Notes: generated by a model from the sequence alone, not told the origin. 64,000 nucleotides of DNA from Candidatus Parcubacteria bacterium (GCA_018664825.1 JABJNO010000018.1:22722-86721), one strand, 5' to 3'; counted from the first letter of the stretch, positions 44,189-63,389 are shown. Made by a program: numbers and translations.

Positions 44189-44848
44189 TTAAGAAGACGT
44201 ATTTGTAAACTCTACCTTTCCCCAAATTTGGTGTTTTTTGGCTAATTTTTTAGCTTTTTTTAATAAATGTTTATTTTTTACTATAGTCAAATTTCCTTCT
44301 ATTTGTATATCATCTGGAAGATCTTCTATCTCGGTCATGGACAATTTTAAGTCACCGACTATTCTCAACCTTTTTGGCAATTTTTTCATTTCAGTAAAAT
44401 GTATATAAGCATCTCCCAATATAGTCATATTGTCTGGTAAATCAAAATCCTCAAAACCCTCTATTTCAAAATGTTCATTTTTGTATATTACCTCTCTGGT
44501 TTCTGGTTTAAGAATAATATTCTCCTCAAACCACTCATCTGCATCTGACTGGGGAATTCCAGCGTCTTTATTTTTTGTTTCTCTACTGAGAAAAACCGCC
44601 CGTATAAGCTGGTCTTTTATTTTTTCTGGATCAAAAAAGAATTTTTTAATTCCATCCATAATAGCTATAAAAGAACTCCGTAATTCCTTTAAACGACGAG
44701 TGTCTTTGTTGGTAATACTGGAATAAAAAATTTCTCCACATTCTTCCATGAGTTTTTTTAAAAACTCCAGATCCCCTCTTAAATCTTTACAATTTTCTAT
44801 TGGCATAATATTTATTCTACTATAATTTTGCAATTTTAAAAACAGCAA
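44189..44848 (-). CDS. Long member (A) of the window-expanded Cys-motif family, with C-terminal LRR-like LPxxLxIxGxL repeats and a basic KKAKKLAKK tail
   Basis: The N-terminal motif is IENCKDLRGDLEFL. The FYV-equivalent is KKFFFDPEKI. The repeats are LPDNMTILGDAY, LPKRLRIVGDLKL and LPDDIQIEGNLTI. Confidence 0.5.
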   Translation of the reverse strand: MLFLKLQNYSRINIMPIENCKDLRGDLEFLKKLMEECGEIFYSSITNKDTRRLKELRSSFIAIMDGIKKFFFDPEKIKDQLIRAVFLSRETKNKDAGIPQSDADEWFEENIILKPETREVIYKNEHFEIEGFEDFDLPDNMTILGDAYIHFTEMKKLPKRLRIVGDLKLSMTEIEDLPDDIQIEGNLTIVKNKHLLKKAKKLAKKHQIWGKVEFTNTSS

Positions 44849-44876
44849 ACTAAATTGCTGTTTTTAAGTATAAGTT

Positions 44877-45089
44877 TTATTTCTTATCATCACCTTGAGC
44901 TTCTTCTTCGGCGCAAAATTCTTCGATTTGCGCTTCTAGCTCAGCGATGTCTTTTTCGGCTTGTTCTTTGAACTCTGTTAGTTCTTGGACCTCTTTGTCA
45001 AATTCCATTTTATCTAGTGTCTCTACAGTGTCTTTGGCCTCTTCTCCCATTTCTTGCCGAAAGCCTTGTCCCATTTTTTGTTCTGGCAT
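44877..45089 (-). CDS. Small acidic coiled-coil protein (70 aa) between family member A and the AAA+ gene
   Basis: It is an ORF with E/K-rich heptads. Confidence 0.35.
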   Translation of the reverse strand: MPEQKMGQGFRQEMGEEAKDTVETLDKMEFDKEVQELTEFKEQAEKDIAELEAQIEEFCAEEEAQGDDKK

Positions 45090-45134
45090 ATTTTTTCAAT
45101 TAAATTAATATTCTTATTAAATTACCTAATTTTA

Positions 45135-48032
45135 TTACGTTTTACCCTTAAGTGCACTTTTGATAAGCTCTCCTTTTGCATCCAAGTCCATACCATCAGC
45201 AGCACTCCTTGTCTCTTCATTTATTATACCTTTTTTCTGAAGTAAATCAAGTAGCATGTCATAAAAATCAGAACTTTCCTGAACAAACTCTTCGTCTGAT
45301 GTATTGTCTCTAAAGTCTTCATTAACGACTATCTCGCCATCTTTTCTCTCTACTAGCTTGGTTTTTTCTATATGTTCTCTATATTCTCTAATTTCAGATG
45401 CATTGTCAAATAAATCAGCCTGCAAAACCGCTACTTTGATTTCTCTAACATCTGTAATTAATCTTTGTACTTTTTCAGCCATTTCATCAATTCCAGCCAT
45501 TTCTTTGTAGACTCCTTGCATTTTTTCATACTCAGCTTTCTTTCTTGGTGGTAGATAACCAAATAACAATTGTAAAGTCTCCAGTGAGGAGAAATATTGT
45601 ATATTGTATTTACCATCGGTATTGAGTAATCCAGCTGCATCACCATTTTGATTGATTGATTTGTATTTGTCTATAGATTTATGAGGATTAAATGAAGTTA
45701 GAGTCTTTTGCCAATTTTTTAAATTTTCCTCCTGATCTCCTCCGGTTGTTGTGGTATAATCTGGCCATTTTTCACTACTCTGAAAAAAGCCTGCTTTTTC
45801 TAAAATAGAATAAATAATTACTTGCTCTTCTGGAAATTGATCATACTTTCTAATATACTTATATAGATAATATTCAATATCCATATTGGTACCTTCATCC
45901 ATGTATCCGCCAATTACATTATCAATCAACTCACGCATAGTAAGATTTGATTTTTTTAATTTATCACTATAATTGGTGGTAGTACCAGCCCCAATGAGTT
46001 GATCAAGATTTCTAAACTCAGGCAAATTTTCCGCACTACCTTCAAACATATCCATAATAATGCGAGCACCCATACTCAAGCGATATATATCCTTGAATAC
46101 AGAAAACCTATCTTCCTGCTTGACCAAAAGCTCTGCACCCATCCTGTCATTAAGAAGTTTGACCAACAACACTTGGAAAATTTGATCGTGCTTGGCTCTT
46201 TCTTTTGATTTTTTAACAACTTCCATAGCTTCTGGAAAATCCGCAAAAGCAGTATCGGCTAATTTTTCTAAATCAAGCCTACCCAAAAGTTCATCAATAT
46301 TTGACACCTCTCTTGATTGAGGAAGGTATCCCATCTTGATTGGGTGGATTCTACTATATGAAGCTGGATCCATATCGTTGTATCTAGCCTGCTTGTATCT
46401 TTCACCGGTATTACCAGTCCAGATCACACAATAACCATCTTTGACTTGAATATCTCCGGAGTCAGTCCTAGTCTGGATGATGTCACCGGGTTTTTTGGTA
46501 AGTAGATCATTGAAGGCAATCAATACCTCTGGAGTAATAGCATTGGCCTCATCAATAATCAAGGGTTTACCTTCGGTCATGGCTTTGTACATAGCACCTA
46601 GAACATAACGCCCCTGTACCTGATTGCCAAATAAACCTTCTAATTGCTGTTCTATGTCTGCAGAAAATTCTTCTGGTAATTTTTCTTTATTATCTTCTAC
46701 ATATTGATCAAATTTTTCTTTATCAAAATCTTCACCAGGATTGGCGTGATCAAAATCTTCTTTCAATCTATTCAAGACAATTGTATCTCTAAAATCACCT
46801 TTACGCTTTGCAAGCTCTGCCATTAATACATCGTCTGGAACACTATCGTCAAAAATCTCACCAGTACCTGAGTCTTTGTTTAAAATATTTAAAACTTCAG
46901 AAAGTGATAATTTTTGAATTTTAAATTCTTCGGTAAATCTATCAGGATCCAAAAATTTACTACCCGAAACTATGATAGGCTCATTCTTGAATCTAGTACG
47001 AGATAGATGCACAGCTAAAGCGGTTTTCCCGGTACCAAAGTCTCCATGAAGATACACGATGGTCGGGGGTCTTTTTGTCAAAGAAGGCATAGCCTCTTCT
47101 ATAATCTTTTTTACATAGTCTGTTTCTACTATTTTACCTGTATTTAATAATTCATGTAGATATTTCATTTCCTTGCTATAATTTACATAAGCAGGAATAA
47201 AATCTTTTTCTACTATATTGCCCTGTTCATCATATGTTGCCTCTGTGCCCAGTTTGTATTCAGTATTATATTTTTTGGCAGCCAACCTCTCTACTCTACT
47301 CGTAGACTTCTGCATCTTTTCTTCATCTACTCCGTGAATCCTAGCTTTTTCACCCTGAGTACGCAAAGAATCTTCATTACGACTAACATTGGCCATATGG
47401 ATTCCCCTTTTGACAGTTTCAATCTGACGTAAAGAGTCCCTCACTTCTGGCAATGAACTTCTAGAATATGCTTTTATTTTTTGAATATCTTCTTCTTCAT
47501 AAGCATCCATCTCTTCACTCAAGGTACTATAATGTGCCTCCATTAAGACATCAAATCTAGCCAGTTTACCCAAAGTACGGACTTCTACCTCTGCTTCCAT
47601 CTCTCTTTCTTTTTTGGCGTCTCTTGCATGAACCCCGTTGACGTCCAAAATCTTTTTTCTTTCTGTCTTATCTATAGAGTCCATGAGCATTTCCATAAAA
47701 ACATCCCTATCAACTCCCCACACAGCATCAAAATCAGCGAGTCTTATAGGATGAGCAAATTTATTTTTTGGATCAGCTTCTTGAGCATTTTTCAAATGCT
47801 CTTGAACAACAGCCTTTAAATCATCTGGCAAAGTATCAAATACCTCTGAGGTCACCAAATTTTCATAAGTCATGTACTTTTTGATCTCATCAAAAATAGA
47901 CAACATCTGCTCTCGCTTGATTTTGTACTCATAAGCCAATCTCTCTGCCTCCAAAGCCTCTGCTACTTCCGCTCTCTGCTCTTCATCATTTAGCTCTGGT
48001 GAAGGTATGGTTGGCATTCTTGATTCTTTCAT
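45135..48032 (-). CDS. Very large (965 aa) AAA+ ATPase of the MoxR/AAA_5-like type, with about 320-aa N-terminal and about 350-aa C-terminal extensions
   Basis: Walker A reads VYLHGDFGTGKTALAV. Walker B reads KPLIIDEANAI. Sensor-1 is WTGNTGERY. An insertion sits between Walker A and B. Confidence 0.7.
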   Translation of the reverse strand: MKESRMPTIPSPELNDEEQRAEVAEALEAERLAYEYKIKREQMLSIFDEIKKYMTYENLVTSEVFDTLPDDLKAVVQEHLKNAQEADPKNKFAHPIRLADFDAVWGVDRDVFMEMLMDSIDKTERKKILDVNGVHARDAKKEREMEAEVEVRTLGKLARFDVLMEAHYSTLSEEMDAYEEEDIQKIKAYSRSSLPEVRDSLRQIETVKRGIHMANVSRNEDSLRTQGEKARIHGVDEEKMQKSTSRVERLAAKKYNTEYKLGTEATYDEQGNIVEKDFIPAYVNYSKEMKYLHELLNTGKIVETDYVKKIIEEAMPSLTKRPPTIVYLHGDFGTGKTALAVHLSRTRFKNEPIIVSGSKFLDPDRFTEEFKIQKLSLSEVLNILNKDSGTGEIFDDSVPDDVLMAELAKRKGDFRDTIVLNRLKEDFDHANPGEDFDKEKFDQYVEDNKEKLPEEFSADIEQQLEGLFGNQVQGRYVLGAMYKAMTEGKPLIIDEANAITPEVLIAFNDLLTKKPGDIIQTRTDSGDIQVKDGYCVIWTGNTGERYKQARYNDMDPASYSRIHPIKMGYLPQSREVSNIDELLGRLDLEKLADTAFADFPEAMEVVKKSKERAKHDQIFQVLLVKLLNDRMGAELLVKQEDRFSVFKDIYRLSMGARIIMDMFEGSAENLPEFRNLDQLIGAGTTTNYSDKLKKSNLTMRELIDNVIGGYMDEGTNMDIEYYLYKYIRKYDQFPEEQVIIYSILEKAGFFQSSEKWPDYTTTTGGDQEENLKNWQKTLTSFNPHKSIDKYKSINQNGDAAGLLNTDGKYNIQYFSSLETLQLLFGYLPPRKKAEYEKMQGVYKEMAGIDEMAEKVQRLITDVREIKVAVLQADLFDNASEIREYREHIEKTKLVERKDGEIVVNEDFRDNTSDEEFVQESSDFYDMLLDLLQKKGIINEETRSAADGMDLDAKGELIKSALKGKT

Positions 48033-48065
48033 ATTTTTTTGAAAAATAATCTTTATCTCTTATAT

Positions 48066-48094
48066 ATAATAAAATTTATATCACTTTAAGTCAA
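48066..48094 (-). promoter_or_regulatory. Putative promoter (TTGACT-17-TATTAT) upstream of the AAA+ gene
   Basis: The minus strand reads ttgact-17-tattat, about 30 nt upstream of the ATG. Confidence 0.3.
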
Positions 48095-48095
48095 T

Positions 48096-51000
48096 CTATT
48101 TTTCTATTCCATCTAGAATTTCATTCATACTTTTCTCAACTTTTTCGGCAATAATTTTTTTGAGCAGCCTGCTAAAAGATTCAACAATTTGCTCGGGAGT
48201 ATTGGCGCGGATTACATTTTCCTTGCCATGTCTTTCGCTAAGACCCTCAAGGGCTGCCTCATCTCCTTCGTGATCACCAATTGCAAACCCACCAACTCCA
48301 ATACCCGTCTCTCCTTTGAAAGCAGCTAAATTTTCATTGGCTTCTTCATTTTTGCCCAAAAATCCACCGTCACAAATTTGGATTACTACTTCAGTCAATT
48401 TGTTATCAGCAATCATTTGTTTGAGCTCTGGATCATTACGATCTCTGAGCATCTTGATCCATAGATCTGCATCAAAGGTGACTTCGCTAGCATTTATTTT
48501 TTTAAATGCCCTCAGGGTACTGATAGTCTCTGCGTCAATGTCTATTTGTGGTTTTTCAGATTCTTCGTCATCCAAAAATGATAGATCCTGCACATCAAAT
48601 TCTTTTATTTTTCTGGCCTCACCATCGTTTCCAAAAAGCCATAATTGAGTGTCACAAATTATATCCAAATTTTCTGGAGCACTATCACCCAAAATCTCTC
48701 TCATTTTGTCTCTAAACAATATCCTAAAAGATCTTAAAGAAGAGTTGAGTAACATTATAGACATGCGCATTTGATCAATCTTACCGCTCATACTACCAGA
48801 ATTATCAATTGCCAAAGTCATGCGCAACATTTTTGGTCTGAGTTCTGAAATAACTCTTTCTACAAGTTGTTCGTAAATAAGTCTATCATCAACCTCAATT
48901 CCCATTTCTATTTCTGGAAAATGTTTTTGCAATCTTTTGACGTCCAATTTTCCACTACGATAATATTTGTCTTTAAAGACTTCGATACGACTAGCAATAT
49001 TGTTTACTACCTCTAGCCAATTTTTGGCCATCTTGTCAGCATAGGGCCTTATCTTTTTTTCTAGTTCTATAAAATCTTTGACAACCCCCTCATTGCTAAG
49101 GTCTTTTCCAGACCAACCACTGTCCGCATCATCGCCCGCTTCAGCCTCTGCTTTGTCCAGGGCTTCCAATAATTTTTTTATCCTAGCTTTGTCGTATTTA
49201 GCTTCTTTATACTCTTCTGATTTTTTGGCTTCTTCTAATTCTCTTAGATTGGCCTCCCTTTGATCTTGCTCTATCATTTGTTCTAGAGCTTCTTTGAGAG
49301 GATTTACAATATCTTTTAGGTCAGTATCATCACCATCTTGATCTTCGGGATTTGTCTCTTGTGGATCACCTTCTCCATCTTCATTATCGTCATCGTCGTC
49401 TCCATCTTCATTGTCGTCGTCTTTATCATCAAAATAATTTTTACGTTTATCAGGTGAAGATTTTGAAGATTTTCCCTTTTGTTTTTTTTGATCTTTATTA
49501 TATAAATTTAAATTAACATACGGATCAAACACTTCTTGTATATCATAAGTGTAATCTGTACTACCTGCCATAGCCTGTACTTCTCTCTCTTCAGAATATT
49601 CTACGGTTACAGAAATTACCTCTCCATCTTTTCCTTCTGTCACTTGGGTAATTATACCTATCTTTCCTCTGTTTGGATCATTTTTATCCACATTGATAAT
49701 TTTGTCACCCTGAGACCAAACTTTCTCTTCCATGTCTGGATCACCACCATCACCGCCATCACCACCTTCTCCTTCGCCTTTTTCTTCTGGCATTGTGACA
49801 TCAAAGCTATCATCCAAAATACAAAGCATAGTAAATATCGGCTCCAAAGTAGTCCTCATTATTTTACTTCTTTCGCTTTGATTATGTTTTAGGGGAAATG
49901 TCCAAGAATATTTTTTTGATTTTGTTTTAGTCTTAAATTCTTCAAAAATATCCAAAAAACTCACGTCTTTTTTTCTCTCTATACCTAATTGAGCTATTAC
50001 TTTTCTCAACCCTGCCTTGTACTGCATCTTGGCTCTTTTGGTATTTACTTGATCAGTAGTCAGGTTGTCAAAAAAATCATTCATCCTGCGGATAAACTCT
50101 GGTTGATTGTTTTTATGTTTTTTATATATTGTATGTAATCCTGGGACAGCAGATAGATTCATAACATTTGACTGAAAATCTGGGTCAACTTCTTCGACCT
50201 TGCCATTTCTTTCTTCAAAATTGGCTACCTTGACAGTAGTAGTCATAAATTCAATATATCTTTTGAGTTGAGCTGGGTCGTCTTTGTATTTTTCCAAAAC
50301 CTTGTTGAGTAATTCTTCATACACTTCGTCTATTGGGCCATTGAGAGCCCTTTCCACATCTTCGTGTACCACAAATTTTCCATTTGGATTTTCTGGACTC
50401 TGGATATCATCTTCATCAAGATCCAACATTTGATTTTTTATAAAAAAAGTCATAAATTGACCAGATCTCATCATGTCTGGTTTTACTTTGGTAAAATCAA
50501 TACCTTGTTCATGGTCTTCGGCTGTAAGTTTGACCAAATTTCCTTTGCCTTTACCAACTTTTTTTATTTCTTTCTTGTCTGGGTTTTTAGGATCTTCTAC
50601 TTCTGCGTATTCCCCGTTACCCTCTCCTACTTCGTTGTACATTACAAAAAGAAGATCGGTATAAGCATCTTTTATTTCTTGGGCTCTTTTTGGAGATACA
50701 TTTTCTCCAAAGTGAGCTGTTTGTTTGACCAGATGATTGACAATCCCATCTTCTAAAACATTATAAAAATGTCTATAAGTATTAAAAAGAGAAAGTGTTT
50801 TTTGTGAATTATCCTTATCACGCATTCTTTTTCTTTCTTCGTATTTGAATTGAGCTATCTGACCATGTTTACCAGCTGGATCAAGCTCTTCCATGGTTTT
50901 ACGATGAGCAAACTCATGAAGCATACCAAACATAATTTGTTCTATATTCATGCCTGTGCCTTCTTTTGAGTTTTTGAATTCTGGCACACTCAAACAAATA

Positions 51001-51257
51001 GTATCAATGCTAGCTGCATAAGAAAAACCCATTCCAAAAACCATGTTGAAACGGGCATTTTTACCTTCCAAAAATGTTCCTATTGTGTCGAGATGTTGCT
51101 GGGCCCACTCACTCATTTCGTCCCTATATGGCCACAGCTCTTTGGGTACACCATTTTGATCCTTGTTTGGATCTTGTTCTGGCTCTTTCTTACCCTTTTT
51201 ATCACCTCCGTCAGCTTGTACTGACATTTCAATTTTAGATCTTCCTTCAAATGACAT
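48096..51257 (-). CDS. 1053-aa protein with an N-terminal HExxH metallopeptidase-like domain (DUF2201_N-like), a poly-acidic linker and a C-terminal von Willebrand A domain with a MIDAS motif
   Basis: It carries MFGMLHEFAHRK (HExxH), DDKDDDNEDGDDDDDNEDGEGD and TLAIDNSGSMSG (DxSxS MIDAS). It lies immediately upstream of the AAA+ gene. Confidence 0.7.
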   Translation of the reverse strand: MSFEGRSKIEMSVQADGGDKKGKKEPEQDPNKDQNGVPKELWPYRDEMSEWAQQHLDTIGTFLEGKNARFNMVFGMGFSYAASIDTICLSVPEFKNSKEGTGMNIEQIMFGMLHEFAHRKTMEELDPAGKHGQIAQFKYEERKRMRDKDNSQKTLSLFNTYRHFYNVLEDGIVNHLVKQTAHFGENVSPKRAQEIKDAYTDLLFVMYNEVGEGNGEYAEVEDPKNPDKKEIKKVGKGKGNLVKLTAEDHEQGIDFTKVKPDMMRSGQFMTFFIKNQMLDLDEDDIQSPENPNGKFVVHEDVERALNGPIDEVYEELLNKVLEKYKDDPAQLKRYIEFMTTTVKVANFEERNGKVEEVDPDFQSNVMNLSAVPGLHTIYKKHKNNQPEFIRRMNDFFDNLTTDQVNTKRAKMQYKAGLRKVIAQLGIERKKDVSFLDIFEEFKTKTKSKKYSWTFPLKHNQSERSKIMRTTLEPIFTMLCILDDSFDVTMPEEKGEGEGGDGGDGGDPDMEEKVWSQGDKIINVDKNDPNRGKIGIITQVTEGKDGEVISVTVEYSEEREVQAMAGSTDYTYDIQEVFDPYVNLNLYNKDQKKQKGKSSKSSPDKRKNYFDDKDDDNEDGDDDDDNEDGEGDPQETNPEDQDGDDTDLKDIVNPLKEALEQMIEQDQREANLRELEEAKKSEEYKEAKYDKARIKKLLEALDKAEAEAGDDADSGWSGKDLSNEGVVKDFIELEKKIRPYADKMAKNWLEVVNNIASRIEVFKDKYYRSGKLDVKRLQKHFPEIEMGIEVDDRLIYEQLVERVISELRPKMLRMTLAIDNSGSMSGKIDQMRMSIMLLNSSLRSFRILFRDKMREILGDSAPENLDIICDTQLWLFGNDGEARKIKEFDVQDLSFLDDEESEKPQIDIDAETISTLRAFKKINASEVTFDADLWIKMLRDRNDPELKQMIADNKLTEVVIQICDGGFLGKNEEANENLAAFKGETGIGVGGFAIGDHEGDEAALEGLSERHGKENVIRANTPEQIVESFSRLLKKIIAEKVEKSMNEILDGIEK

Positions 51258-51266: not shown

Positions 51267-51295
51267 TTACATACTTTATTATAATACATTTTTAC
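51267..51295 (-). promoter_or_regulatory. Consensus sigma70-type promoter TTGACA-17-TATAAT driving the vWA/AAA+ pair
   Basis: The minus strand reads ttgaca (51290-51295 RC), a 17-nt spacer, then tataat (51267-51272 RC), about 20 nt upstream of the ATG at 51257. Confidence 0.45.
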
Positions 51296-51335
51296 TAAAA
51301 TGTCAAAAAATACCCCGTTTCTACCCCTTTTTTAC

Positions 51336-51962
51336 TTAATTAATGACTGTTATTTGTCCTTTTTCCTTTAATTCTTTGGCTCTATCCAGTAAATCAGCAT
51401 CAACATGTATAATAACCGCCCTCAAATCATCTGGTAAATCAGTCAGCCCAGTACGCCTTATAAACAATTCGTTGACTGTCATCCCCGATGGTAACTCATC
51501 TAGCTTGGTACCAGTCAAACGTAAATCTTCTTTGATCTGTAAATTTTTTGGCAATCTGACAACATCACAATTTTTTAGCTGCAAATTTCCTCCGATTATC
51601 AAATTGTCCGGTAAGGTAGTAAATTTTTTATCATTAAAATGCCTAGGAGCATGAAGCTGTGTTTCCATCTCATCTCTATAGATCATAACTCTAGAACCAA
51701 TCAGCTCTCTTGCCTCTACCTCGTCTTGTGCTTCACCTACTTCTACAAAAAACTGTGCCCAAGAATTTTCTGTTTTGATAACAAAAATATCTTTTTTTAT
51801 TTCTCCTATCTCTACCAATATTGCGTCTTTTAATTTAAACAAACCATCCCTATCTTCTCTTTTGGCAGAAGCTAGGGCAGTCTCCAATTTTTTTATTGTA
51901 ACTCTGGCAATAACAACCCTATCAAATAGTTGCTGACAATTTTTAGGTTTTGTATCTGGCAT
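51336..51962 (-). CDS. Long member (B) of the Cys-motif family with four LRR-like LP repeats and a basic tail; directly abuts the rmuC stop
   Basis: It carries KPKNCQQLFDRVVIARV...AQFFVEVGEA. The repeats are LPDNLIIGGNLQL, LPKNLQIKEDLRL, LPSGMTVNELFI and LPDDLRAVIIHV, ending KELKEKGQITVIN. Confidence 0.5.
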   Translation of the reverse strand: MPDTKPKNCQQLFDRVVIARVTIKKLETALASAKREDRDGLFKLKDAILVEIGEIKKDIFVIKTENSWAQFFVEVGEAQDEVEARELIGSRVMIYRDEMETQLHAPRHFNDKKFTTLPDNLIIGGNLQLKNCDVVRLPKNLQIKEDLRLTGTKLDELPSGMTVNELFIRRTGLTDLPDDLRAVIIHVDADLLDRAKELKEKGQITVIN

Positions 51963-53577: not shown

Positions 53578-53901
53578 TTATATTTTATCTATCAACTTAC
53601 TAATATCTTCAAAATCTACGTCCATTGATTGTTTGGCTACCTGCTTGGCCAAAAAATTGTCTCCCGACTCAATGATTGTCTCGGCAATTTGCTGGACATT
53701 TATGTCACGAAATTTATCCATATTGTCAGACAACAATTTTGCCTGACCTGTTTTGATGAGCTCTAGGGCTACTTGCTGATGAATAGCTGATTTGACTTCA
53801 TCCAATATCCCAAAATCACCCGTCTGCATGTCCATAATATAATTGAGTACTATACTCTCGGGTGTTAGTTTTGAAAAATGTGTATTTTTATCCTCTTGCA
53901 T
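53578..53901 (-). CDS. Hypothetical protein (107 aa)
   Basis: It is an ORF that overlaps the tatD stop by 1 nt. Confidence 0.35.
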   Translation of the reverse strand: MQEDKNTHFSKLTPESIVLNYIMDMQTGDFGILDEVKSAIHQQVALELIKTGQAKLLSDNMDKFRDINVQQIAETIIESGDNFLAKQVAKQSMDVDFEDISKLIDKI

Positions 53902-55226: not shown

Positions 55227-55484
55227 TTATTTAATATTATCTTCCCTGAAGGATATTCGAGAACCATCTCCTATCGTATCCTTAACATGTGCAAATTCAT
55301 CCTTCAATATTTTGAATCTTCTACTAAACTCATCTCTTGCCGCAACAATCAAGTGTAAGTCTCTTGACTCCCCCAGCACGTCAATTTGTTTTGAAATATC
55401 CTCACTTAATCCTCTTGAAATTTCAATATCTATTCTAAGGGTTTTACATATATTCGATTTATAAACTCTCAATTTCATAAGCAA
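55227..55484 (-). CDS. Cys-motif family member (85 aa)
   Basis: It carries SNICKTLRIDIEISRG and IVAARDEF. Confidence 0.45.
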   Translation of the reverse strand: MLMKLRVYKSNICKTLRIDIEISRGLSEDISKQIDVLGESRDLHLIVAARDEFSRRFKILKDEFAHVKDTIGDGSRISFREDNIK

Positions 55485-55513
55485 TAATCAAGTAAACTAA
55501 TTTTTTATACTAT

Positions 55514-55729
55514 TTATTCAAATAAATTATTCGCTTCCATTTCTATAGACTGTGGCAAAATCCCCCTTAGGGTTCTATACTTTATAATCAACTTATCTCT
55601 AGCATCAATAGCCGGTTCAATGTTTCCTGTTTTTTTTGTTTTTTCAACCTCTATTAAAACATCTTCATTCCATTCGCGCAATTTTTCAATCCCCCCTCTC
55701 ATTTCTTTACATATGTGTGATTTAGTCAT
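55514..55729 (-). CDS. Cys-motif family member (71 aa), ATGA-coupled to the metG stop
   Basis: It reads MTKSHICKEMRGGIEKLREW. Its start overlaps the metG stop. Confidence 0.45.
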   Translation of the reverse strand: MTKSHICKEMRGGIEKLREWNEDVLIEVEKTKKTGNIEPAIDARDKLIIKYRTLRGILPQSIEMEANNLFE

Positions 55730-57177
55730 AATCTTGGAAATAATGGTTTTTCTGGTTTGGTTATTTTATCAGCTGACAAAATATTTATTATCTGTTCACT
55801 GGTCTTTGGCATAAAAGATTTCAATGAAATAGCCACCGAATAAAGATCATTTGTTAATTCCTCTAAAATTTCTTTTAACTTATCTTTATTACTTTCATCT
55901 TTGGCTAGTACCCATGGCTTGGTTTCATCAATTAGGCCATTGCCCTTTTTGATAATCTGCCAGATAGTAAGCAGAGCTTCTCTAAAACGTAATTGCTTTA
56001 TTTCTTCGCCACCCAGATCCGCATCTTTGATATTAATATCAACCTTGCCATCCAAATATTTTTCTACCATGTTGGTAACACGATTTACTAGATTACCTAG
56101 ACCATTTACCAAATCTGCATTGTACTTGGTAGCAAACTCCTCTACTTTGATATCAGATTCACTTCCAAAAGAAAACTGAGAAAGAATTAGATATTTAGTC
56201 ACTTCGGCTCCGTATTTTTCTACCAATTCATTTGGACTGATTACGTTGCCCAAAGTCTTTGACATCTTTTGTCCGTCAATAGTAAAAAATCCATGCACGT
56301 ACATACTCTTTGGCAATTCTACATCCATAGCCATCAACATAGCTGGCCATAATAATGTATGAAATTTCAAAATCTCCAAAGCCATCAAGTGTACATCGGC
56401 TGGCCAAAACTTTTTGAAGTTTTCACCATCTGGATAGCCCAAGGCTGTAATATAGTTTGATAGTGCATCCACCCAGACATAAGTCTTTTGATCATCATCC
56501 CAAGGTATATCAATGCCCCAAGATACAGACTTACTGCTACGAGAAATAGAAATATCTGGCATTCCTTGTTTTATCAATCCCAAAACTTCTTTTTTTCTAC
56601 CTTCTGGATATATGATTAGCTCGCCTGATTCTATTTTTTGTTTGATAGCTGGTAAAAAATCACCAAGTTTGAAAAACCAGTTTTTTTCTGAAAGTTTTTC
56701 TGGTTCTTTGTTGTGATCTGGGCATTTACCATCGACCAAGTCATTTTCGGTCATAAACTTTTCACAGCCCACACAATACAAACCTTCATATTCCCCTTCA
56801 TACAACACATCGTTGCCTTGGGGAGTTTTTGCTTCTTTCAAACTCTTTAAAATATCAACAACAGTTTTTTTGTGATCATCATCGGTGGTACGAATAAAAT
56901 AATCATTTTCAATTTCTAGATTTTTCCAAGCCTCTTTAAACAATGTACTTATTTGATCTGTAAACTCCTGAGGGGAAACATTGTTTTTCTCAGCTGCTTC
57001 TGCAATCTTGGCACCATGCTCGTCTGTACCAGTCAAGAAAAATACATTTTCTTTGCCAATTTTGCCACGATAATATCTAGCCAAAACATCAGCTATAATA
57101 GTTGTATAAGCGTGCCCTATATGGGGCTTGTCATTTACATAGTATATTGGTGTTGTTACGTAAAACTTTTCTTTCAT
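55726..57177 (-). CDS. metG: Methionyl-tRNA synthetase (short form)
   Basis: HIGH reads HIGHAYT and KMSKS reads KMSKT. Zn-knuckle cysteines are present. Confidence 0.9.
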   Translation of the reverse strand: MKEKFYVTTPIYYVNDKPHIGHAYTTIIADVLARYYRGKIGKENVFFLTGTDEHGAKIAEAAEKNNVSPQEFTDQISTLFKEAWKNLEIENDYFIRTTDDDHKKTVVDILKSLKEAKTPQGNDVLYEGEYEGLYCVGCEKFMTENDLVDGKCPDHNKEPEKLSEKNWFFKLGDFLPAIKQKIESGELIIYPEGRKKEVLGLIKQGMPDISISRSSKSVSWGIDIPWDDDQKTYVWVDALSNYITALGYPDGENFKKFWPADVHLMALEILKFHTLLWPAMLMAMDVELPKSMYVHGFFTIDGQKMSKTLGNVISPNELVEKYGAEVTKYLILSQFSFGSESDIKVEEFATKYNADLVNGLGNLVNRVTNMVEKYLDGKVDINIKDADLGGEEIKQLRFREALLTIWQIIKKGNGLIDETKPWVLAKDESNKDKLKEILEELTNDLYSVAISLKSFMPKTSEQIINILSADKITKPEKPLFPRL

Positions 57178-57921: not shown

Positions 57922-58191
57922 TTATTCTTCTGTCATTATTTGTGTCTTGGCGACAATGCCATAAAAATCATCGAGTTGTTTGGTGAGCATCTTTATATCT
58001 TTGGCGGTGGCCTCCACTATCAGAGTGACAATACCCGTACAATGCTCTACACAACTACGACTAGGATTGATCCCCATCCGCCCCAAAATGATGTTGCCAT
58101 TTTCAGTCAAAATTTTCTGTACATCTGTGGCGTGAGCGTGTCTATCTTTTATCAAGATAGTAATTGTTGCTAATTGTTTTTTTCCTGTCAT
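57922..58191 (-). CDS. TM1266-like small ACT-fold regulator (putative iron-only-hydrogenase-system-regulator family)
   Basis: The pattern ITILIKDR...V.KILTENGNIILGRMGI......IVTLIVEA...I..LT.QL....GI.AK matches that family as I recall it. Confidence 0.45.
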   Translation of the reverse strand: MTGKKQLATITILIKDRHAHATDVQKILTENGNIILGRMGINPSRSCVEHCTGIVTLIVEATAKDIKMLTKQLDDFYGIVAKTQIMTEE

Positions 58192-58195
58192 ATGT

Positions 58196-58864
58196 TTATT
58201 TATTTACTACTACTACAAATTCTCCTTTTTGTTGATCTTTATTTTGCTCTAGTGTTTCCAATATCTCTTTGGCAGTACCACGATATATTGTTTCAAACTT
58301 TTTGGTGAGCTCTCTACCTACTATCAAATGCTTGTCACAATCAGATAGTTGATTCAAAGTTTTCATAATCCTATGAACTGATTCAAAAAATATTATTGGC
58401 ACCTTGGATTCTTTTATCTGACCTATGATGGTCTGTCTACCTTTTTTGTGTGGTAAAAATCCCAAAAAAGAAAACTTATCAAGTGGAATGCCAGCTACAG
58501 AAAGTATCGCAGCTACTGTACTAGTCCCTGGGATTGGGATGATTTCAATATCTGGGAAGTCCGCCAAAGCCAACTCAATCAATTTGCCACCAGGATCAGA
58601 AAATCCAGGTGTACCAGCATCAGTAATCAGGGCAATATTTTTGTCCTCTTTTATAAATTTGGCGACCTTGTTCCAATCAGAATCTTTGCTGTGTTGATGC
58701 CAGGCAACCATCTTGGTCTTTATTTCATAATGACTCAAAAGTTTTACGCTGACTCTTTTGTCCTCTGCCAAAACAATGTCTACATTTTTCAAAGTATCCA
58801 AAGCTCGGAAGGTCATGTCTTCCAAATTTCCAATCGGCGTTGCAACTATAAAAATTTTTGACAT
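58196..58864 (-). CDS. rsmI: 16S rRNA (cytidine1402-2'-O)-methyltransferase RsmI
   Basis: It reads IVATPIGNLEDMTFRA...LAEDKR and has the tetrapyrrole-methylase fold signature. Confidence 0.8.
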   Translation of the reverse strand: MSKIFIVATPIGNLEDMTFRALDTLKNVDIVLAEDKRVSVKLLSHYEIKTKMVAWHQHSKDSDWNKVAKFIKEDKNIALITDAGTPGFSDPGGKLIELALADFPDIEIIPIPGTSTVAAILSVAGIPLDKFSFLGFLPHKKGRQTIIGQIKESKVPIIFFESVHRIMKTLNQLSDCDKHLIVGRELTKKFETIYRGTAKEILETLEQNKDQQKGEFVVVVNK

Positions 58865-59904
58865 TAGTCTTCTAATCTATTATCTCTTTTAGCTTTTGAA
58901 CCTAGTACACTTTCAAAATATACCGCAATGGCGATAGCCACTGGCACGGCCAGTAATGCTCCTACAATACCACCAATACGAGCACCCATCAAAATAGCGA
59001 GGATGACTACTAGTGGATTGAGGCCCGTGGTTTTACCCATGACCTTTGGTACAATCAGATTATTTTCTATCTGCTGAACTACAAAATACAGTATTGCCAC
59101 CCAAATAGCTAGGGCTGGACTTTGAGAAAAGGCAAAGAAAACACCAGGGATAGCAGAAATCCAAGGACCAAGAAAAGGCACAATCTCAAATATACCCGCC
59201 ACCAGTGCCAAAATCAAAGCATATTCTACTCCCAGAGCCGACAAGCCAATATACACCATCAAAAATACAATCACCGACAATATCAACTGACCGCGTAGCC
59301 AATAGCCCATCCTGTGTTGGATATCACTAATAAGCTTGGCGGTATAAGGTCTATGTTTACTCGGCACTATACTTTGGATAAATTTTTTCATACCCTCTTC
59401 TTCGACGGTCAAATAAAAAGTAATCACCAATACCATAAAGAAACTAATCACTCCACCAAATATAGAAGTAAGTAGATTGAATATACTGCTACCGGCTTGA
59501 GAAAGCCCCTTGGTGATATCACCAATATTTGTACTGACAGTCTCTGGTACAGCAGAGGTATCGATACTCTGCAGTCTCTGCATACCTTCTGTTATTTTTA
59601 CATAATACTCAGGGAAAGCCCTAGACATATCTTTGACCTGATCCCCAATTGGATCAATGAGCAAAAATATTGCTCCACCAATGATAGCCAAAAATACAAC
59701 ATAGACTCCAACAATACTCAAGGCTCGTGGAATCTTTCTGAGTTGTAGCCAATCAATAAGCGGATCAAAGGCAGATGACAAGATGATAGCTACAAAAAAT
59801 AAAGCTAGTACATCTTTTATTAGATATAAGAATCCCAAAACTAGTAGGATTAATATTACTCTGACAATTGTGTCAGTAGAAATTGAAACTGATCTAGATG
59901 ACAT
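58864..59904 (-). CDS. AI-2E family (PerM/YhhT-like) transporter
   Basis: It has eight TM helices and the AI-2E pattern. Confidence 0.75.
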   Translation of the reverse strand: MSSRSVSISTDTIVRVILILLVLGFLYLIKDVLALFFVAIILSSAFDPLIDWLQLRKIPRALSIVGVYVVFLAIIGGAIFLLIDPIGDQVKDMSRAFPEYYVKITEGMQRLQSIDTSAVPETVSTNIGDITKGLSQAGSSIFNLLTSIFGGVISFFMVLVITFYLTVEEEGMKKFIQSIVPSKHRPYTAKLISDIQHRMGYWLRGQLILSVIVFLMVYIGLSALGVEYALILALVAGIFEIVPFLGPWISAIPGVFFAFSQSPALAIWVAILYFVVQQIENNLIVPKVMGKTTGLNPLVVILAILMGARIGGIVGALLAVPVAIAIAVYFESVLGSKAKRDNRLED

Positions 59905-59915
59905 AATTTTTTATT

Positions 59916-61184
59916 TTATTTTTTTAATATATTTAAAAATTTATTTTTATTTTCAAATGTCCCAATGATTGCCAAATTTGATTGTTTCCAATCTACGATA
60001 TCTTTGGCAGCTTTATTGACCTGGAGTAGTGTGATTTTGTCTAGCTCGGCTAGTTTTTTCTCAAGATCTTTGATTTCTTTTTGTAAAAACTCTTGTGATA
60101 TCAAAAAGTTGAGATGAGCACCTGCATTTTCCATTTTCAAAATTGTGCGACCACGGATATTATCCTTGGCTTTCTGAAGCTCTTCTTTTGTTATTCCTTT
60201 ATATTTTACATCATTTAGCTCTTTTTTGATAGCTTCCAAAGCTTCATAGATTTTCTCTTTATTTAGGCCCGCGTGTACCAAAAATCCACTAGTATCTGTA
60301 TAACCACTCAAAGATGCTTTGATAAAATAACAAAGTCCTTTTCTTTCGCGGATATTGAGAAACAAACGAGAACTCATAGTGCCCCCTAGGATATTGGCTA
60401 GTAGCTGATTGTGCAAAAACTCTTTTTTGACACTAGCTATACTACGAAATCCAAGCATAAGCTGAACTTGTTCTACATCTCTTTTAAAAATTTTTACTCT
60501 GGGCGATGCTTGTTTGAAAGTTGCTAATTTTTTGCTTTTTACTCTGGCCTGTTTTTTGCCTACTGGAAAAAGTTTATCTATAAGTTTCAAGGCTTGTTTT
60601 TCATCAAATTTTCCAGCTACACCTATAACAGCATTACCATTGTAATAATATTTTTTGTAATAATTGTACAAAGTATTTCGAGACATTGTCTGGATATTTA
60701 CCCTAGGTCCTGCAATAGACATACCCAAATCACTTTTATCAAAAAGCAACATCTCAAATACATCTTCTATGTGCATCAAAGGATTGTCTTCGTACATATT
60801 TATTTCTTCGACGATCACTCCTCTTTCCCTGTCTACTTCTTTGGGATCAAATTTTGAATTGTGAATCATGTCAGAAATCATATCAGCAGCCAAAGGCAAA
60901 TGTTTGCTATCAGCTGTGATGTAGTAGCCCGTGTATTCTTTGCCTGTAAAAGCATTGTAATCAGCCCCAATACCATCTAGCTCTCGAGAAATATCGACAG
61001 TGTGTGGTCTTCGCTCGGTGCCTTTGAACATCAGGTGTTCCACAAAATGAGAAGCGCCGTTGTTTTTTTTATTTTCTTGACGTGAGCCTACTTTAAACAA
61101 AATCTCAAAAGTAGCTGCCTTGGTGTCTTTTTTGGGTGCCAAGATTATGACACTACCGTCTTTTCTTTCTATTCTTTTAAACAT
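59916..61184 (-). CDS. M16-family (pitrilysin-like) zinc peptidase
   Basis: It carries the inverted HxxEH motif (HFVEH). Confidence 0.75.
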   Translation of the reverse strand: MFKRIERKDGSVIILAPKKDTKAATFEILFKVGSRQENKKNNGASHFVEHLMFKGTERRPHTVDISRELDGIGADYNAFTGKEYTGYYITADSKHLPLAADMISDMIHNSKFDPKEVDRERGVIVEEINMYEDNPLMHIEDVFEMLLFDKSDLGMSIAGPRVNIQTMSRNTLYNYYKKYYYNGNAVIGVAGKFDEKQALKLIDKLFPVGKKQARVKSKKLATFKQASPRVKIFKRDVEQVQLMLGFRSIASVKKEFLHNQLLANILGGTMSSRLFLNIRERKGLCYFIKASLSGYTDTSGFLVHAGLNKEKIYEALEAIKKELNDVKYKGITKEELQKAKDNIRGRTILKMENAGAHLNFLISQEFLQKEIKDLEKKLAELDKITLLQVNKAAKDIVDWKQSNLAIIGTFENKNKFLNILKK

Positions 61185-61204
61185 ATATGTTAAATTTTTA
61201 TTTG

Positions 61205-61549
61205 TTAAATTCTTTTAAAATAATATTCTTTTTGTTCTATTTGTTTTTTTATTTCGTTGTTATCAAGCTGAGCCATGGCGGCCATATCTTTGGAGGCGAT
61301 AACATTTTGAGTTTTATTTAATTCAATAATTCTCTCTGAGTACATTTCTCTTAATTTCAATAATTCTCTATCCACATAAAAATTATCCAAAACATACCTC
61401 AGGTCTGTAGCGGCCCGTTGGATGGCAAATTTGATATGCCCCTTTCCCCGATCAATAATCCCTTGGAAAATTTCATCATGCTCTGCCTTGAATTCCTCGA
61501 CTTGCTTGAATTCGTTTTTTAATTGTTCACAAACTTCTGTTTTAATCAT
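61205..61549 (-). CDS. Tandem-array Cys-motif family member 5 of 5 (114 aa)
   Basis: It carries MIKTEVCEQLK...DNFYVDRELL...VIASKD. Confidence 0.5.
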   Translation of the reverse strand: MIKTEVCEQLKNEFKQVEEFKAEHDEIFQGIIDRGKGHIKFAIQRAATDLRYVLDNFYVDRELLKLREMYSERIIELNKTQNVIASKDMAAMAQLDNNEIKKQIEQKEYYFKRI

Positions 61550-61833
61550 CTAAAAAATTTATCCTTTAAAAAATAAGGTACCCTGTCTTTTATCAATTTA
61601 TCTTTCATTGATTCTAATTCTGTAGGAGTCCAGAACCCTGTATAATTATCATCATTTTTATAACTACCTATACTACGTAAAATATGAGGATCAACATAAA
61701 AGGCATTTATAGCATCCCTAATGCTAGTAAGTTTGACTCCAAAATCTTTATCACCCGCAGCAATGCTCGTCAACTGAAGTCCCGTGATAGTAATTTCGTT
61801 TCTTAACTCTTCACAAAGCTCTACTTTATTCAT
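61546..61833 (-). CDS. Tandem-array Cys-motif family member 4 of 5 (95 aa)
   Basis: It carries MNKVELCEELR...NAFYVDPHIL...VPYFL, with ATGA overlaps on both sides. Confidence 0.5.
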   Translation of the reverse strand: MNKVELCEELRNEITITGLQLTSIAAGDKDFGVKLTSIRDAINAFYVDPHILRSIGSYKNDDNYTGFWTPTELESMKDKLIKDRVPYFLKDKFFR

Positions 61834-62164
61834 AAGGCTCTTGTAAAAAATAAGGTATACCCTTGGCTCTTTCTTCTTTTATCTGCTTCTTCATGCTTGT
61901 TTTAATTTTTTCTAACTTTTCAGCTTTTTCTGCACCAACAAATTTTAGGTATATCAAATCTATCCCTTGCCGATAAATATCTAGAGCTGTTTGATTCATA
62001 TAAAACTCATCAATTTTGTCTTGAATAAATTCACTCTGCTCTATTGTGGCCTTTCTTACTTCTTCCAAGCCTAAATTTTTTATATCAAAATCAAACTTAT
62101 CCAAATATCCTCTGACAGTTATTATATCGGCTCTAAGTTTTTCACAGACTTCTGTTTTAGTCAT
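61826..62164 (-). CDS. Tandem-array Cys-motif family member 3 of 5 (112 aa)
   Basis: It carries MTKTEVCEKLRADI...DEFYMNQTAL...IPYFL. Confidence 0.5.
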   Translation of the reverse strand: MTKTEVCEKLRADIITVRGYLDKFDFDIKNLGLEEVRKATIEQSEFIQDKIDEFYMNQTALDIYRQGIDLIYLKFVGAEKAEKLEKIKTSMKKQIKEERAKGIPYFLQEPYE

Positions 62165-62507
62165 CTAGTTTCATCGTCTTAAAATATGGAATTTTTCTTA
62201 TCTTTTGCTCGAACACCATGTCTTCAAATTTTCTAACATCACTTGAAAGAATTTTGAATAATACATGGAACTCTTCTTGATTGGTTTTAAGGTTTGAAAG
62301 TTTCTTCTCTGCTTTTTCTAATAAACTTAATGTAGCAGGGCGTACATAAAAATTGTCTATGTTGTTCCTAGCCTGCTTTAAAGCTTCTACTAGGTCATCC
62401 AGAATAGCCATATCCCGACTAGCTATCATATTATGAATAGCCTGCATTTCATCTTTCAGTACACCAAAATCTATTCTTATTTTTTCGCAAACTTCTACTT
62501 TAGTCAT
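62157..62507 (-). CDS. Tandem-array Cys-motif family member 2 of 5 (116 aa)
   Basis: It carries MTKVEVCEKIR...MIASRD...DNFYVRPATL...IPYF. Confidence 0.5.
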   Translation of the reverse strand: MTKVEVCEKIRIDFGVLKDEMQAIHNMIASRDMAILDDLVEALKQARNNIDNFYVRPATLSLLEKAEKKLSNLKTNQEEFHVLFKILSSDVRKFEDMVFEQKIRKIPYFKTMKLDD

Positions 62508-62841
62508 TTATCTTTTCTCTTAAAAAATATGGAATTTTTTCTTTTCTCATCCTCTCTACTTTGGGTGCCAAGTGTTTGTATAGTCTAATATCAAAATTAG
62601 GACTTCCTTGAGGCATTTTCTCAAAATGTAAATAATGCTTTAAAATTCTTGACTCTACATAAAATTCATCCATCCTATCCTTGATAAAATCAATCATCTC
62701 ATCAATAACCAAATCTTCTTCAAGTTGTTTCAATAATTTTAAATCACGGCTAGCTATAACTTTATTGATTCCACCTTGCAGTGATCCTTTTAATATAGCA
62801 ATGTCTGCCTTGAGTTTTTTACATTCTTGTAGTTTAGTCAT
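62500..62841 (-). CDS. Tandem-array Cys-motif family member 1 of 5 (113 aa)
   Basis: It carries MTKLQECKKLKADI...VIASRD...DEFYVESRIL...IPYFL. Confidence 0.5.
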   Translation of the reverse strand: MTKLQECKKLKADIAILKGSLQGGINKVIASRDLKLLKQLEEDLVIDEMIDFIKDRMDEFYVESRILKHYLHFEKMPQGSPNFDIRLYKHLAPKVERMRKEKIPYFLREKIND

Positions 62842-63389
62842 TATCTTATTTCAAATTTTTCTATCTTTCCCTCTTTTTTCAATCTCTCGGCATCTTTTTT
62901 GTGCTTTTTGTTTATAATCAGTTTACCCGTGACATAAAGATTGAGTGGTAGCTCAAAAAGATTTGTCCAATCTGAGACATCTAGATCTCCTTCAAATTCC
63001 AAATCTTCTGCCAAAACTGATAATTTAGCATTTTTTAAAACAAAGGAACGCGGAATAACAACTTTTTTTCTATCATGATCAATATGCACATATTTTTTTA
63101 TAAAAGAATAAATCCTATGACGATCCTCTCCCATGCCCTTGGTTGCTTTTATATAATGTACAAGTGCGTTTCTTATAAACTCCTCCAAATCCGCCCCCTC
63201 AGGCCTGTCACGAAGTACGGGATAATTTCTTTTATTCCCATATTTATAAATCCTTCTCTTCAAAAATTTTAATTCTTCAAGCCCACCCTTATCTTCTAGC
63301 ATACTTAGATTAATAGAAAAATCTCTTAGCCTTTCTTTGGCTATAGCAATAGAATCTCTAAAATGCTGACAATCTGGAAATAAAATCAT
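62841..63389 (-). CDS. Long member (C) of the Cys-motif family with an LRR-like C-terminal part and a basic tail; TAATG-coupled to glyS
   Basis: It carries FPDCQHFRDSIAIAKERLRDF, then LEFEGDLDV and LPLNLYVTGKLII, ending KKDAERLKKEGKIEKFEIR. Confidence 0.5.
   Translation of the reverse strand: MILFPDCQHFRDSIAIAKERLRDFSINLSMLEDKGGLEELKFLKRRIYKYGNKRNYPVLRDRPEGADLEEFIRNALVHYIKATKGMGEDRHRIYSFIKKYVHIDHDRKKVVIPRSFVLKNAKLSVLAEDLEFEGDLDVSDWTNLFELPLNLYVTGKLIINKKHKKDAERLKKEGKIEKFEIR

Follow-up and report, generated by a model that had tools for sequence, protein, structure and literature searches.

Ten orphan genes of a Parcubacteria genome sort into a Cys-helix module and a capped leucine-rich repeat module found beside a candidate AAA_5–vWA pair

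A 64,000-nucleotide stretch of a Candidatus Parcubacteria metagenome-assembled genome (GCA_018664825.1, JABJNO010000018.1:22722-86721; hereafter the window, meaning the whole stretch analysed) carries ten small "hypothetical" genes, and the question that they raise is whether they form one family and what such genes might do. Bacteria of the Candidate Phyla Radiation (CPR), among them the Parcubacteria, account for a large part of the diversity of bacteria; their genomes are small, and much of that sequence has no annotation. We refer to the tandem five (61205-62841) as T1-T5, to the two solo short forms (55227-55729) as S1 and S2, and to the three long forms as L1-L3. A first-pass annotation had taken all ten for one family and had stressed their copy number. 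We find that the ten genes sort into two definable modules, an N-terminal helical domain with a single cysteine (the Cys-helix domain) and a leucine-rich repeat (LRR) solenoid closed by a conserved cap, with a testable partner pair next to two of the long forms. The interest of the locus lies less in the copy number than in its orphan Cys-helix domain, on the one hand, and in an LRR-cap module beside an AAA_5 ATPase and a proposed zincin-vWA protein, on the other.

All ten are real genes. The open reading frames (ORFs) were confirmed where the first-pass annotation had placed them, on the minus strand, which carries nearly all genes of the window (NCBI locus tags HON36_04255-04370), except for two starts. 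That of L1 moves from 44848 to the ATG at 44806 (MPIENC, 205 aa) because the TTG at 44848 sits inside a terminator-like hairpin (44835-44868), and that of S1 moves from 55484 to the ATG at 55478 (83 aa), in agreement with the Joint Genome Institute (JGI) gene call. More than 20 further contigs show the same arrangement, as does a JGI contig of 283,695 bp, and orthologs were recovered from three related assemblies (L006, and L009 with L028). Nonsynonymous-to-synonymous rate ratios (dN/dS, Nei-Gojobori) are 0.15-0.36 for L2, L3, T1, T3, T5 and S2, compared with 0.03-0.09 for the neighbouring GlyRS, MetRS, CvpA and RmuC genes; the former values therefore point to coding genes under purifying but relaxed selection. 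None of the ten proteins has a match above threshold in Pfam, NCBIfam, PHROGs or PADLOC. A profile search of all 575 stop-to-stop ORFs of the window found no further members; a 70-aa acidic ORF (44877..45089; T profile E 0.2) and a 107-aa ORF (53578-53901) were considered and rejected. The ten genes are most likely a lineage-restricted, fast-evolving set of cytoplasmic, non-enzymatic protein-binding modules.

Within this set the three groups T, S and L are solid, and we hold it very probable that these groups, and the modules as described here, are correct. In BLASTP comparisons against a database of the ten proteins, T1-T5 match one another at 1e-13 to 2e-3, with the T1-T5 pair as an exception (0.13), S1 matches S2 at 1.6e-6, and L1 matches L2 at 4e-10 and L3 at 2e-3, the last via the C-terminus. 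Residues M1, K3, C7, F60, Y61, L67, Y105 and F106 are invariant in T1-T5, and the AlphaFold2 model of T1 (predicted local distance difference test, pLDDT, 82.6) has six helices. In the architecture that we propose, a first block of about 75 residues, the Cys-helix domain, would consist of helix 1 with a single invariant Cys, helix 2, an aromatic turn motif and helix 3, and a second block would be an FlrP-type LRR solenoid closed by a conserved helix-strand cap. T1-T5, S1 and S2 would then be the first block plus variable helices, L1 and L3 would contain both blocks, and L2 would be the second block with the Cys/aromatic signature only. We also considered the N-terminal Cys as a lipoprotein or signal-peptide feature and rejected this, as no hydrophobic segment precedes it.

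The second block can be identified with some precision. The long forms had been read as carrying LRR-like repeats, and this holds: L1, L2 and L3 each have 3-4 units of 20-23 aa in which the pattern LP-x-x-L-x-[IV]-x-G-x-L is readable, and a long-form profile searched against the PDB matches Vibrio FlrP (8z5u chain 0) at E 2.4e-21 over three stretches. Three of four features considered for the LRR superfamily, including the beta-solenoid fold, are found in the long forms; the fourth, a Pfam LRR model match, is absent from L1-L3, and paralogs from Peribacteria reach only a sub-threshold LRR_EndoS hit. A Foldseek search of the PDB with the L1 model gave no significant match, and the similarity of the long forms to SspH1 is not significant (E 0.6-3.6). 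The L1 model has a pLDDT of 81.6 overall and above 90 in the solenoid and cap, where a helix (180-190) and a strand (198-201), at a pLDDT of about 96, close the solenoid. What had been described as a lysine-rich tail does exist, and in the model it is a conserved folded helix-strand module (consensus DAxRLKKEGKI) rather than a loose, low-complexity basic appendage. Its 'KKDAERLKKEGKI' form is identical in L3 and in the proteins P0006 and P0008, which are otherwise divergent, with at most 31% identity over at most 45% of their length to the long forms and with unrelated N-terminal domains.

The link between the groups lies in the N-terminus and is of a different strength. We built profiles that included orthologs and searched them against the 575 ORFs of the window. 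The T profile recovered S1 at 6.5e-5, L1 at 2e-4 and S2 at 1.7e-3, with noise from E 0.2; L3 scored 0.88 and L2 was not matched. The L-N-terminal profile recovered T1 at 8e-5 and T3 at 4e-3, the S profile recovered T1 and T3 at 2-4e-3, and all alignments between groups begin at residue 1 of both partners. Pairwise hhalign comparisons gave P 2.5e-4 for T and L1 over 58 columns, with the Cys and the FYV/FFFDP motifs in register, P 1.2e-4 for T and S over 22 columns and P 0.008 for T and L3 over 21 columns; T and L2 (P 0.3) were not significantly similar. When T, S and L1 are combined in one profile, L3 is recruited at 1.2e-3 (noise from 0.3) and L2 is not. In 100 column shuffles per pair none reached the observed scores (observed 25-28; shuffles averaging about 9.5, maximum 18), and an unrelated, charged helical N-domain from Peribacteria gave only P 0.1-0.5 against T, S and L.

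Two sequence features run through all ten members and their orthologs. A single Cys, usually the only one of the protein, stands at residues 6-11; at residues 5-10 a Cys is absent from all 48 other genes of the window, where Cys has a background frequency of 1.1%. About 40-53 residues after it, as read from the sequences, comes an aromatic motif (FYV in T, FFFDP in L1), which the T1 and L1 models place at a helix-helix turn. Secondary-structure strings from the AlphaFold models agree over the first ~75 residues, with helices at 3-31, 44-61 and 64-75 in T1 and at 3-28, 33-56 and 60-76 in L1. On these comparisons nine of the ten genes are tied together by their N-termini at modest significance, the links of T to S, L1 and L3 being weak but reproducible, whereas L2 belongs, on present sequence comparisons, by its C-terminal module and Cys/aromatic signature only. 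The ten-member family proposed at first is therefore clear in its groups, weak in its N-terminal link and undetectable in that respect for L2. The N-terminal motif ascribed to the long forms is present as a Cys in all three, in N-termini that are not significantly alike, and the likeness to the T genes extends past the first 12 residues for L1, given its 58 columns, and does not for L2.

It could instead be that T, S and L are three separate small families without a common function, their N-termini alike by convergence or through a copied translational-coupling cassette, and that L1 and L2 adjoin the AAA_5 and vWA genes incidentally in a compact, co-directional genome. The behaviour of L2, whose N-terminus is not significantly similar to those of T, S, L1 and L3, the lack of significant mutual similarity among the L1, L2 and L3 N-termini (hhalign) and the short span of the T-S match (about 22-40 residues) all favour it. 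So does the DNA at the T gene starts. A 41-nt repeat, present once per T gene, spans the start codon and the first 13 codons, including the ATGACTAA start/stop overlap, while the rest of the T genes shows no DNA similarity; it may reflect nucleotide-level constraint from translational coupling, or gene conversion, and part of the N-terminal similarity could therefore be constraint on nucleotides. Against separate families, the profile matches are reciprocal, anchored at residue 1 and well above window-wide noise, the T-L1 match includes the aromatic motif within its 58 columns, shuffles and an unrelated helical domain score far lower, and the Cys is kept in the orthologs of L2 and L3, genes that lie outside T-type overlap cassettes. 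We regard separate families as unlikely, yet as an alternative to be taken seriously. The T array itself is old, because protein identity among T1-T5 is only 20-36% and DNA similarity is limited to those 41 nt; a recent tandem duplication was rejected on the same grounds.

The Cys-helix domain is narrowly distributed and its genes turn over rapidly. A HMMER scan through 1.84 billion representative proteins turned up about ten real relatives for the T family, of 75-124 aa (most of them 105-124 aa), all from this Parcubacteria clade and none fused to an LRR. The top match to the T profile, the 851-aa P0017, is a false positive: it is a tandem-repeat secreted protein with 15 copies of ...ISEIQNKINGFYVGERV..., whose repeat scores are summed. 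GlyRS is 97% identical to its L006 ortholog, versus 72% for L3 and 59-70% for T1, T3 and T5, and MetRS and RmuC are 84-88% identical to their L009 orthologs, versus 53% for L2 and 51% for S2. After GlyRS, L006 has L3, a new 105-aa member and T1-, T3- and T5-like genes. In the more distant L028 (1018-2473) GlyRS is followed directly by four T genes (111, 131, 124 and 116 aa) with no L3, and the 131-aa member has a 10-residue N-terminal extension ahead of the Cys. After MetRS there are three small genes in L009 versus two in the window. Since array content differs in each of the three relatives, the arrays have undergone birth-and-death turnover. An 86-aa ORF after MetRS in L009 (2821-3081) has a Cys-bearing N-terminal helix followed directly by 'KGIPYFKKE'; the presence of the T C-terminal motif in the middle of this protein suggests that the two motifs touch each other or get shuffled.

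Many of these genes stand at the end of a housekeeping operon and are translationally coupled to it. The overlap is TAATG between GlyRS and L3 and between L3 and T1, coupling L3 on both sides, T4/T5 and MetRS/S2 overlap as ATGA, T1/T2, T2/T3 and T3/T4 overlap by 8 nt (ATGACTAA or ATGAATAA), and rmuC and L2 abut as TAAATG. The window has five aminoacyl-tRNA synthetase (aaRS) genes, HisRS, PheT, probably PheS, MetRS and GlyRS (13404-14726, 28335-31770, 55726-57177 and 63389-64000), and only MetRS and GlyRS are followed by family members, both by stop/start overlap. The T and S proteins might accordingly be accessories of these enzymes, small helical scaffolds or regulators resembling appended aaRS domains and held in a fixed ratio to GlyRS and MetRS by translational coupling, with L3 as a passenger. 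The coupled GlyRS-L3-T1 and MetRS-S2 junctions and the retention of these positions after GlyRS and MetRS in L006, L028 and L009 agree with this. The relatives are close, however (housekeeping proteins 76-97% identical), and their synteny is therefore not independent evidence. A stoichiometric cofactor would not be expected to turn over as rapidly as the arrays do, no such genes follow HisRS and PheRS, which lie in the window too, and the family is absent from all other lineages. With five aaRS genes among about 58, finding two of four clusters beside an aaRS is, by estimate, marginally unexpected (p ~0.04). We give an aaRS accessory role little credence; in the reading that we prefer, the arrays would evolve by birth-and-death duplication and ride as translationally coupled passengers at the ends of the GlyRS, MetRS and rmuC operons.

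The second block is found more widely. Peribacteria/Peregrinibacteria contigs (L007, L011, L014 and L015) have 7-8 LRR-cap paralogs per locus. These join the same cap to well-formed C-T-S-L-T-S-L-P-D-N-L repeats and to an N-terminal domain that they have in common but that is not the one seen here, and their profile matches FlrP at 1e-19, RPP1 at 8e-15 and Roq1 at 4e-6. By hhalign, the N-termini of T, S and L show no similarity to this Peribacteria N-domain. Two L007 paralogs (7019-7948 and 9522-10541) keep the common N-domain and end in a different, unannotated C-terminal domain of about 200 aa, so the Peribacteria N-domain is a handle for more than one kind of C-terminal module. Because LRR and cap occur with another N-domain in Peribacteria, while only a tiny Parcubacteria clade has the Cys-helix domain, the LRR-cap is probably the older and wider unit, and the modular accretion onto a common N-terminal fold that had been suggested probably has the direction reversed. 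Scans of viral contigs with the tail motif, with the LRR protein P0007 of the virus-like contig L010 and with the DUF2201 protein of L010 found no relatives, and a word-indexed protein search with the C-terminal module alone returned one fragment only and was uninformative. An FlrP-type LRR 38% identical to P0007 is encoded by gp47 of Edwardsiella phage Edno5 (L029 5935-6678; NC_054464.1 26924-27667), a cultured lambdoid phage, in which the gene lies in the early-left operon beside cIII with no AAA_5 or vWA genes nearby.

What the LRR-cap proteins may act with is suggested by their neighbours, which the first-pass annotation had missed. L1 and L2 flank a three-gene unit that encodes a 1053-aa protein, a 965-aa AAA_5 ATPase and a 70-aa acidic protein (Table 1). 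The 1053-aa protein has an acidic linker (residues 610-649, 24 Asp or Glu in 40 residues) about 170 residues ahead of a MIDAS-like motif (MIDAS, for metal ion-dependent adhesion site), reminiscent of the acidic regions of CobT and midasin. The neighbourhood is conserved. The order L2, HExxH/vWA, AAA_5, L1 is the same in the window and L009. In Peribacteria (L007, L011 and L014) an AAA_5 gene (653-661 aa; the L007 ATPase matches the CobS-like phrog_249 at 1.7e-17) and a gene for an HExxH...DVSGSM protein (~642 aa) lie amid LRR-cap arrays. On L010, which also encodes PolB, RNR and dUTPase, the order is P0007, DUF2201_N/DUF2201, AAA_5; the LRR gene is uncapped, yet in the same position. The trio is thus present in two CPR lineages, and an uncapped form on a virus-like contig.

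Table 1. Coordinates of the ten genes, the start-codon repeat and the features of the AAA_5 neighbourhood, in window positions
Feature	Position	Strand	Description
L1	44189..44806	-	205 aa; N-terminal helical domain 44519-44806; LRR solenoid 44273-44518; cap helix + strand 44192-44272
L2	51336..51962	-	208 aa; N-terminal helical region 51618-51962; four LP-repeats 51402-51617; cap/tail 51339-51401; directly after rmuC; ortholog P0004 53% identical, dN/dS 0.30
L3	62841..63389	-	182 aa; N-terminal helical region 63078-63389; degenerate LRRs 62913-63077; cap/tail 'KKDAERLKKEGKIEKFEIR' 62844-62912; ortholog P0005 72% identical
T1	62500..62841	-	113 aa; all-helical Cys-helix protein, MTKLQEC...FYV...IPYFL; ortholog P0014 59% identical, dN/dS 0.24
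T2	62157..62507	-	116 aa; start overlaps T1 stop by 8 nt (ATGACTAA)
T3	61826..62164	-	112 aa; 8-nt overlap with T2; ortholog P0015 70% identical, dN/dS 0.15
T4	61546..61833	-	95 aa; 8-nt overlap with T3
T5	61205..61549	-	114 aa; ATGA overlap with T4; C-terminal motif YYFKRI; L006 ortholog 60% identical, dN/dS 0.36
S2	55514..55729	-	71 aa; ATGA overlap with MetRS stop; N-terminal Cys helix in common with T; L009 ortholog 51% identical, dN/dS 0.34
S1	55227..55478	-	83 aa; S2 paralog (BLASTP 1.6e-6); T profile E 6.5e-5
41-nt DNA repeat, five copies	61509-61549, 61793-61833, 62124-62164, 62467-62507, 62801-62841	-	5' ends of T1-T5; 68-76% identity; spacing 284-343 nt
1053-aa partner	48096..51257	-	HExxH (HEFAH, residue 114); MIDAS-like DNSGSM (residue 818); proposed zincin-vWA (DUF2201/CobT-like)
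965-aa AAA_5 (CobS/MoxR-like) ATPase	45135..48032	-	Pfam AAA_5 6.9e-8; phrog_249 CobS-like 8.5e-11; Walker A residue 330; Walker B 'LIIDEANA' residue 491
70-aa acidic protein	44877..45089	-	Final gene of the vWA-AAA unit; not a family member
Sigma-70-type promoter match	51278..51306	-	12/12 (TTGACA-17-TATAAT); between L2 and the 1053-aa gene, just upstream of the latter; best in 20 kb
Terminator-like hairpin	44835..44868	.	14-bp stem, T/A runs on both sides; between the 70-aa acidic gene and L1

That LRR, AAA_5 and vWA genes recur together in three divergent lineages is the chief reason for our proposal that the ATPase-vWA pair and the LRR-cap proteins work together, and it also argues against an incidental adjacency of three separate families. 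Judged from gene order and sequence motifs, we consider the chances that the LRR-cap proteins act with the pair to be evenly balanced. The fuller picture, in which they would be the variable, target-binding third component of an AAA_5 and zincin-vWA pair, is possible and in our estimate falls a little short of even. We infer the physical or functional link to the pair from these neighbourhoods, and the ten genes would then most likely encode protein-binding adaptors for the AAA_5-vWA machine. The LRR-cap proteins might be interchangeable target-binding adaptors of the pair, or its clients: the LRR would bind a client and either the cap or the N-terminal domain would dock to the vWA/AAA pair, the cap being the candidate docking element. 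In this scheme the Cys-helix domain would serve as a handle peculiar to the lineage, and T and S, as paralogs made up of that handle alone, would compete or co-assemble with the long proteins. It is rather doubtful that T and S share this pathway at all.

Several observations weigh against this proposal. The AAA and vWA proteins of the three lineages are not alignable by BLASTP or hhalign beyond their Walker and MIDAS motifs, and the 1053-aa protein has no Pfam vWA or DUF2201 match and no profile match to vWA. A promoter follows L2 and a hairpin precedes L1, suggesting that L1 and L2 are transcribed apart from the vWA-AAA unit; that they look like separate transcription units is also what three unrelated families would lead one to expect. 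No AAA_5 or vWA gene is near L3, any of the T and S genes or a solo copy in Peribacteria (L012), and FlrP-type LRRs occur without AAA or vWA genes nearby in Vibrio FlrP and in phage Edno5. The three lineages amount to a handful of contigs, and the L2 N-terminus is not demonstrably homologous to those of the other members. If the link fails, the locus is still a clean example of birth-and-death evolution and of coupled orphan genes riding at the ends of housekeeping operons.

The same LRRs could alternatively belong to exported effectors with which an episymbiotic CPR bacterium interacts with its host, the LRRs binding host proteins in the manner of IpaH/SspH and the Cys-helix serving as a secretion or chaperone signal. 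Bacteria that live with hosts often have LRR effectors, the family evolves fast and turns over its paralogs, and a constant N-terminal element joined to C-termini that vary recalls the layout of effector families. Giant proteins whose N-termini resemble T4SS pilins are likewise encoded in the window. Two of its minus-strand genes, for proteins of 3098 aa (1528-10824) and 540 aa (10849-12471), have a T4SS-pilin/TrbC-like N-terminal segment followed by Big_5 Ig-like domains and probably encode surface proteins of the CPR cell. What speaks against effectors is that the sequences and models have polar, helical N-termini with no signal peptide or hydrophobic segment, that no secretion ATPase or chaperone was identified beside the family genes examined, that SspH1 similarity is not significant, and that the recurrent neighbours are cytoplasmic AAA_5/vWA proteins. 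We therefore think an effector role improbable, and return to adaptors of the AAA_5-vWA pair.

Taken furthest, the adaptor proposal would describe a three-part surveillance or remodelling system, previously undescribed, that two CPR groups, Parcubacteria and Peribacteria, would have in common with at least one virus-like element. The diversifying LRR-cap arrays would be split, NLR (nucleotide-binding LRR receptor)-like sensors, and the DAxRLKKEGKI cap would dock to the MIDAS of the zincin-vWA protein, driven by a CobS/MoxR-type AAA_5 motor. In the Parcubacteria version the N-terminal Cys would act as a cysteine-switch ligand of the HExxH site, and the T and S paralogs would be decoys or inhibitors that set the threshold. 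All these elements holding jointly is a long shot. We found no description of an AAA_5, HExxH-vWA and LRR-cap arrangement in CPR in the literature searched, which is not proof of novelty.

Comparison with known systems places the two modules more closely. FlrP (PDB 8z5u chain 0; bioRxiv 10.64898/2025.12.04.692373) has the same LRR subtype, with units of about 20-23 aa of the form LP-x-x-L-x-V-x-G-x-L-x-L, and FlrP and the long forms alike form a small solenoid, about the size of one domain, whose surface carries positive charge. FlrP is made with a Sec signal peptide and serves in the periplasm as a spacer on the rod of the flagellum (bioRxiv 10.64898/2025.12.04.692373); the window proteins, unlike it, have no signal peptide, carry an N-terminal helical domain and the DAxRLKKEGKI cap, and occur in a non-flagellar context. 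The LRRs of TNL-type plant NLRs (RPP1 and Roq1) are matched by the Peribacteria-type paralogs, whereas the window repeats are degenerate and match only FlrP significantly; compared with NLR, IpaH and SspH proteins, the window proteins are without NB-ARC, TIR and NEL domains. The T genes recall WXG100/Esx and CsoR proteins in being ~100-aa, helical and sometimes tandem, by analogy only: they have no WxG motif or Cys/His metal triad, and without type VII secretion genes (an EssC/EccC context) they fall outside the WXG100 group.

The pair itself resembles CobS/CobT and the cobST pairs of tailed viruses (PMC8651126) in its CobS-like ATPases, in the C-terminal MIDAS of the partner, in the acidic linker of the window protein and in its occurrence on a virus-like contig. 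It differs in that the window partner carries HExxH and that LRR genes are not part of known cobST clusters; the 1053-aa protein has no CobT or CobT_C Pfam match, and no CobN or corrin-pathway gene is present among the window ORFs examined. With the combination of AAA_5 and DUF2201_N plus DUF2201 (a putative metallopeptidase plus a vWA-like domain), in which the L010 protein has both Pfam domains, the window, L007, L011 and L014 share the HExxH...D-x-S-G-S-M layout, although the window protein is below all Pfam thresholds and about 400 residues longer. PADLOC-DB 2.0 gave no defence model match, the ATPase reaching only a 15.7-bit TRIP13 P-loop hit and the L, T and vWA proteins nothing. The locus thus lies outside the ternary conflict systems, the cobaltochelatases and the known defence systems.

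The most instructive comparison is with the MoxR-vWA ternary systems. MoxR-class ATPases work with vWA partners whose MIDAS captures an acidic target residue while the ATPase remodels the target, as in NorQ/NorD, RavA/ViaA and CobS/CobT (PMC7159879, PMC8651126). For the ternary systems the proposed mode of action is capture of a peptide by the vWA protein and its remodelling by the ATPase (Kaur, Burroughs, Iyer, Aravind 2020, eLife, PMC7159879), and small multi-copy Cys-bearing DUF397 proteins are noted as attached to systems of this kind (PMC7159879). The window matches this plan in a MoxR-class AAA+ ATPase (Pfam AAA_5 6.9e-8; phrog_249 8.5e-11), and in a fast-diversifying candidate third component, often in several paralogous versions. 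Its putative vWA/MIDAS partner is suggested by DNSGSM at residue 818 of the 1053-aa protein, which has no Pfam or profile vWA match. No VMAP, iSTAND, FtsH or beta-propeller domain was found in the window, and the third component would here be the LRR-cap. The window vWA protein also differs, with HExxH in its N-terminal part and effector domains missing from its C-terminus; the ATPase, of 965 aa, is CobS-like, and the hosts are reduced CPR bacteria, whereas the ternary systems occur mostly in multicellular-type bacteria. If the proposal is right, it would add an LRR-based third component to the MoxR-vWA theme and would hint at targets for the cobST-like pairs that are widespread, and functionally unexplained, in phages and reduced genomes.

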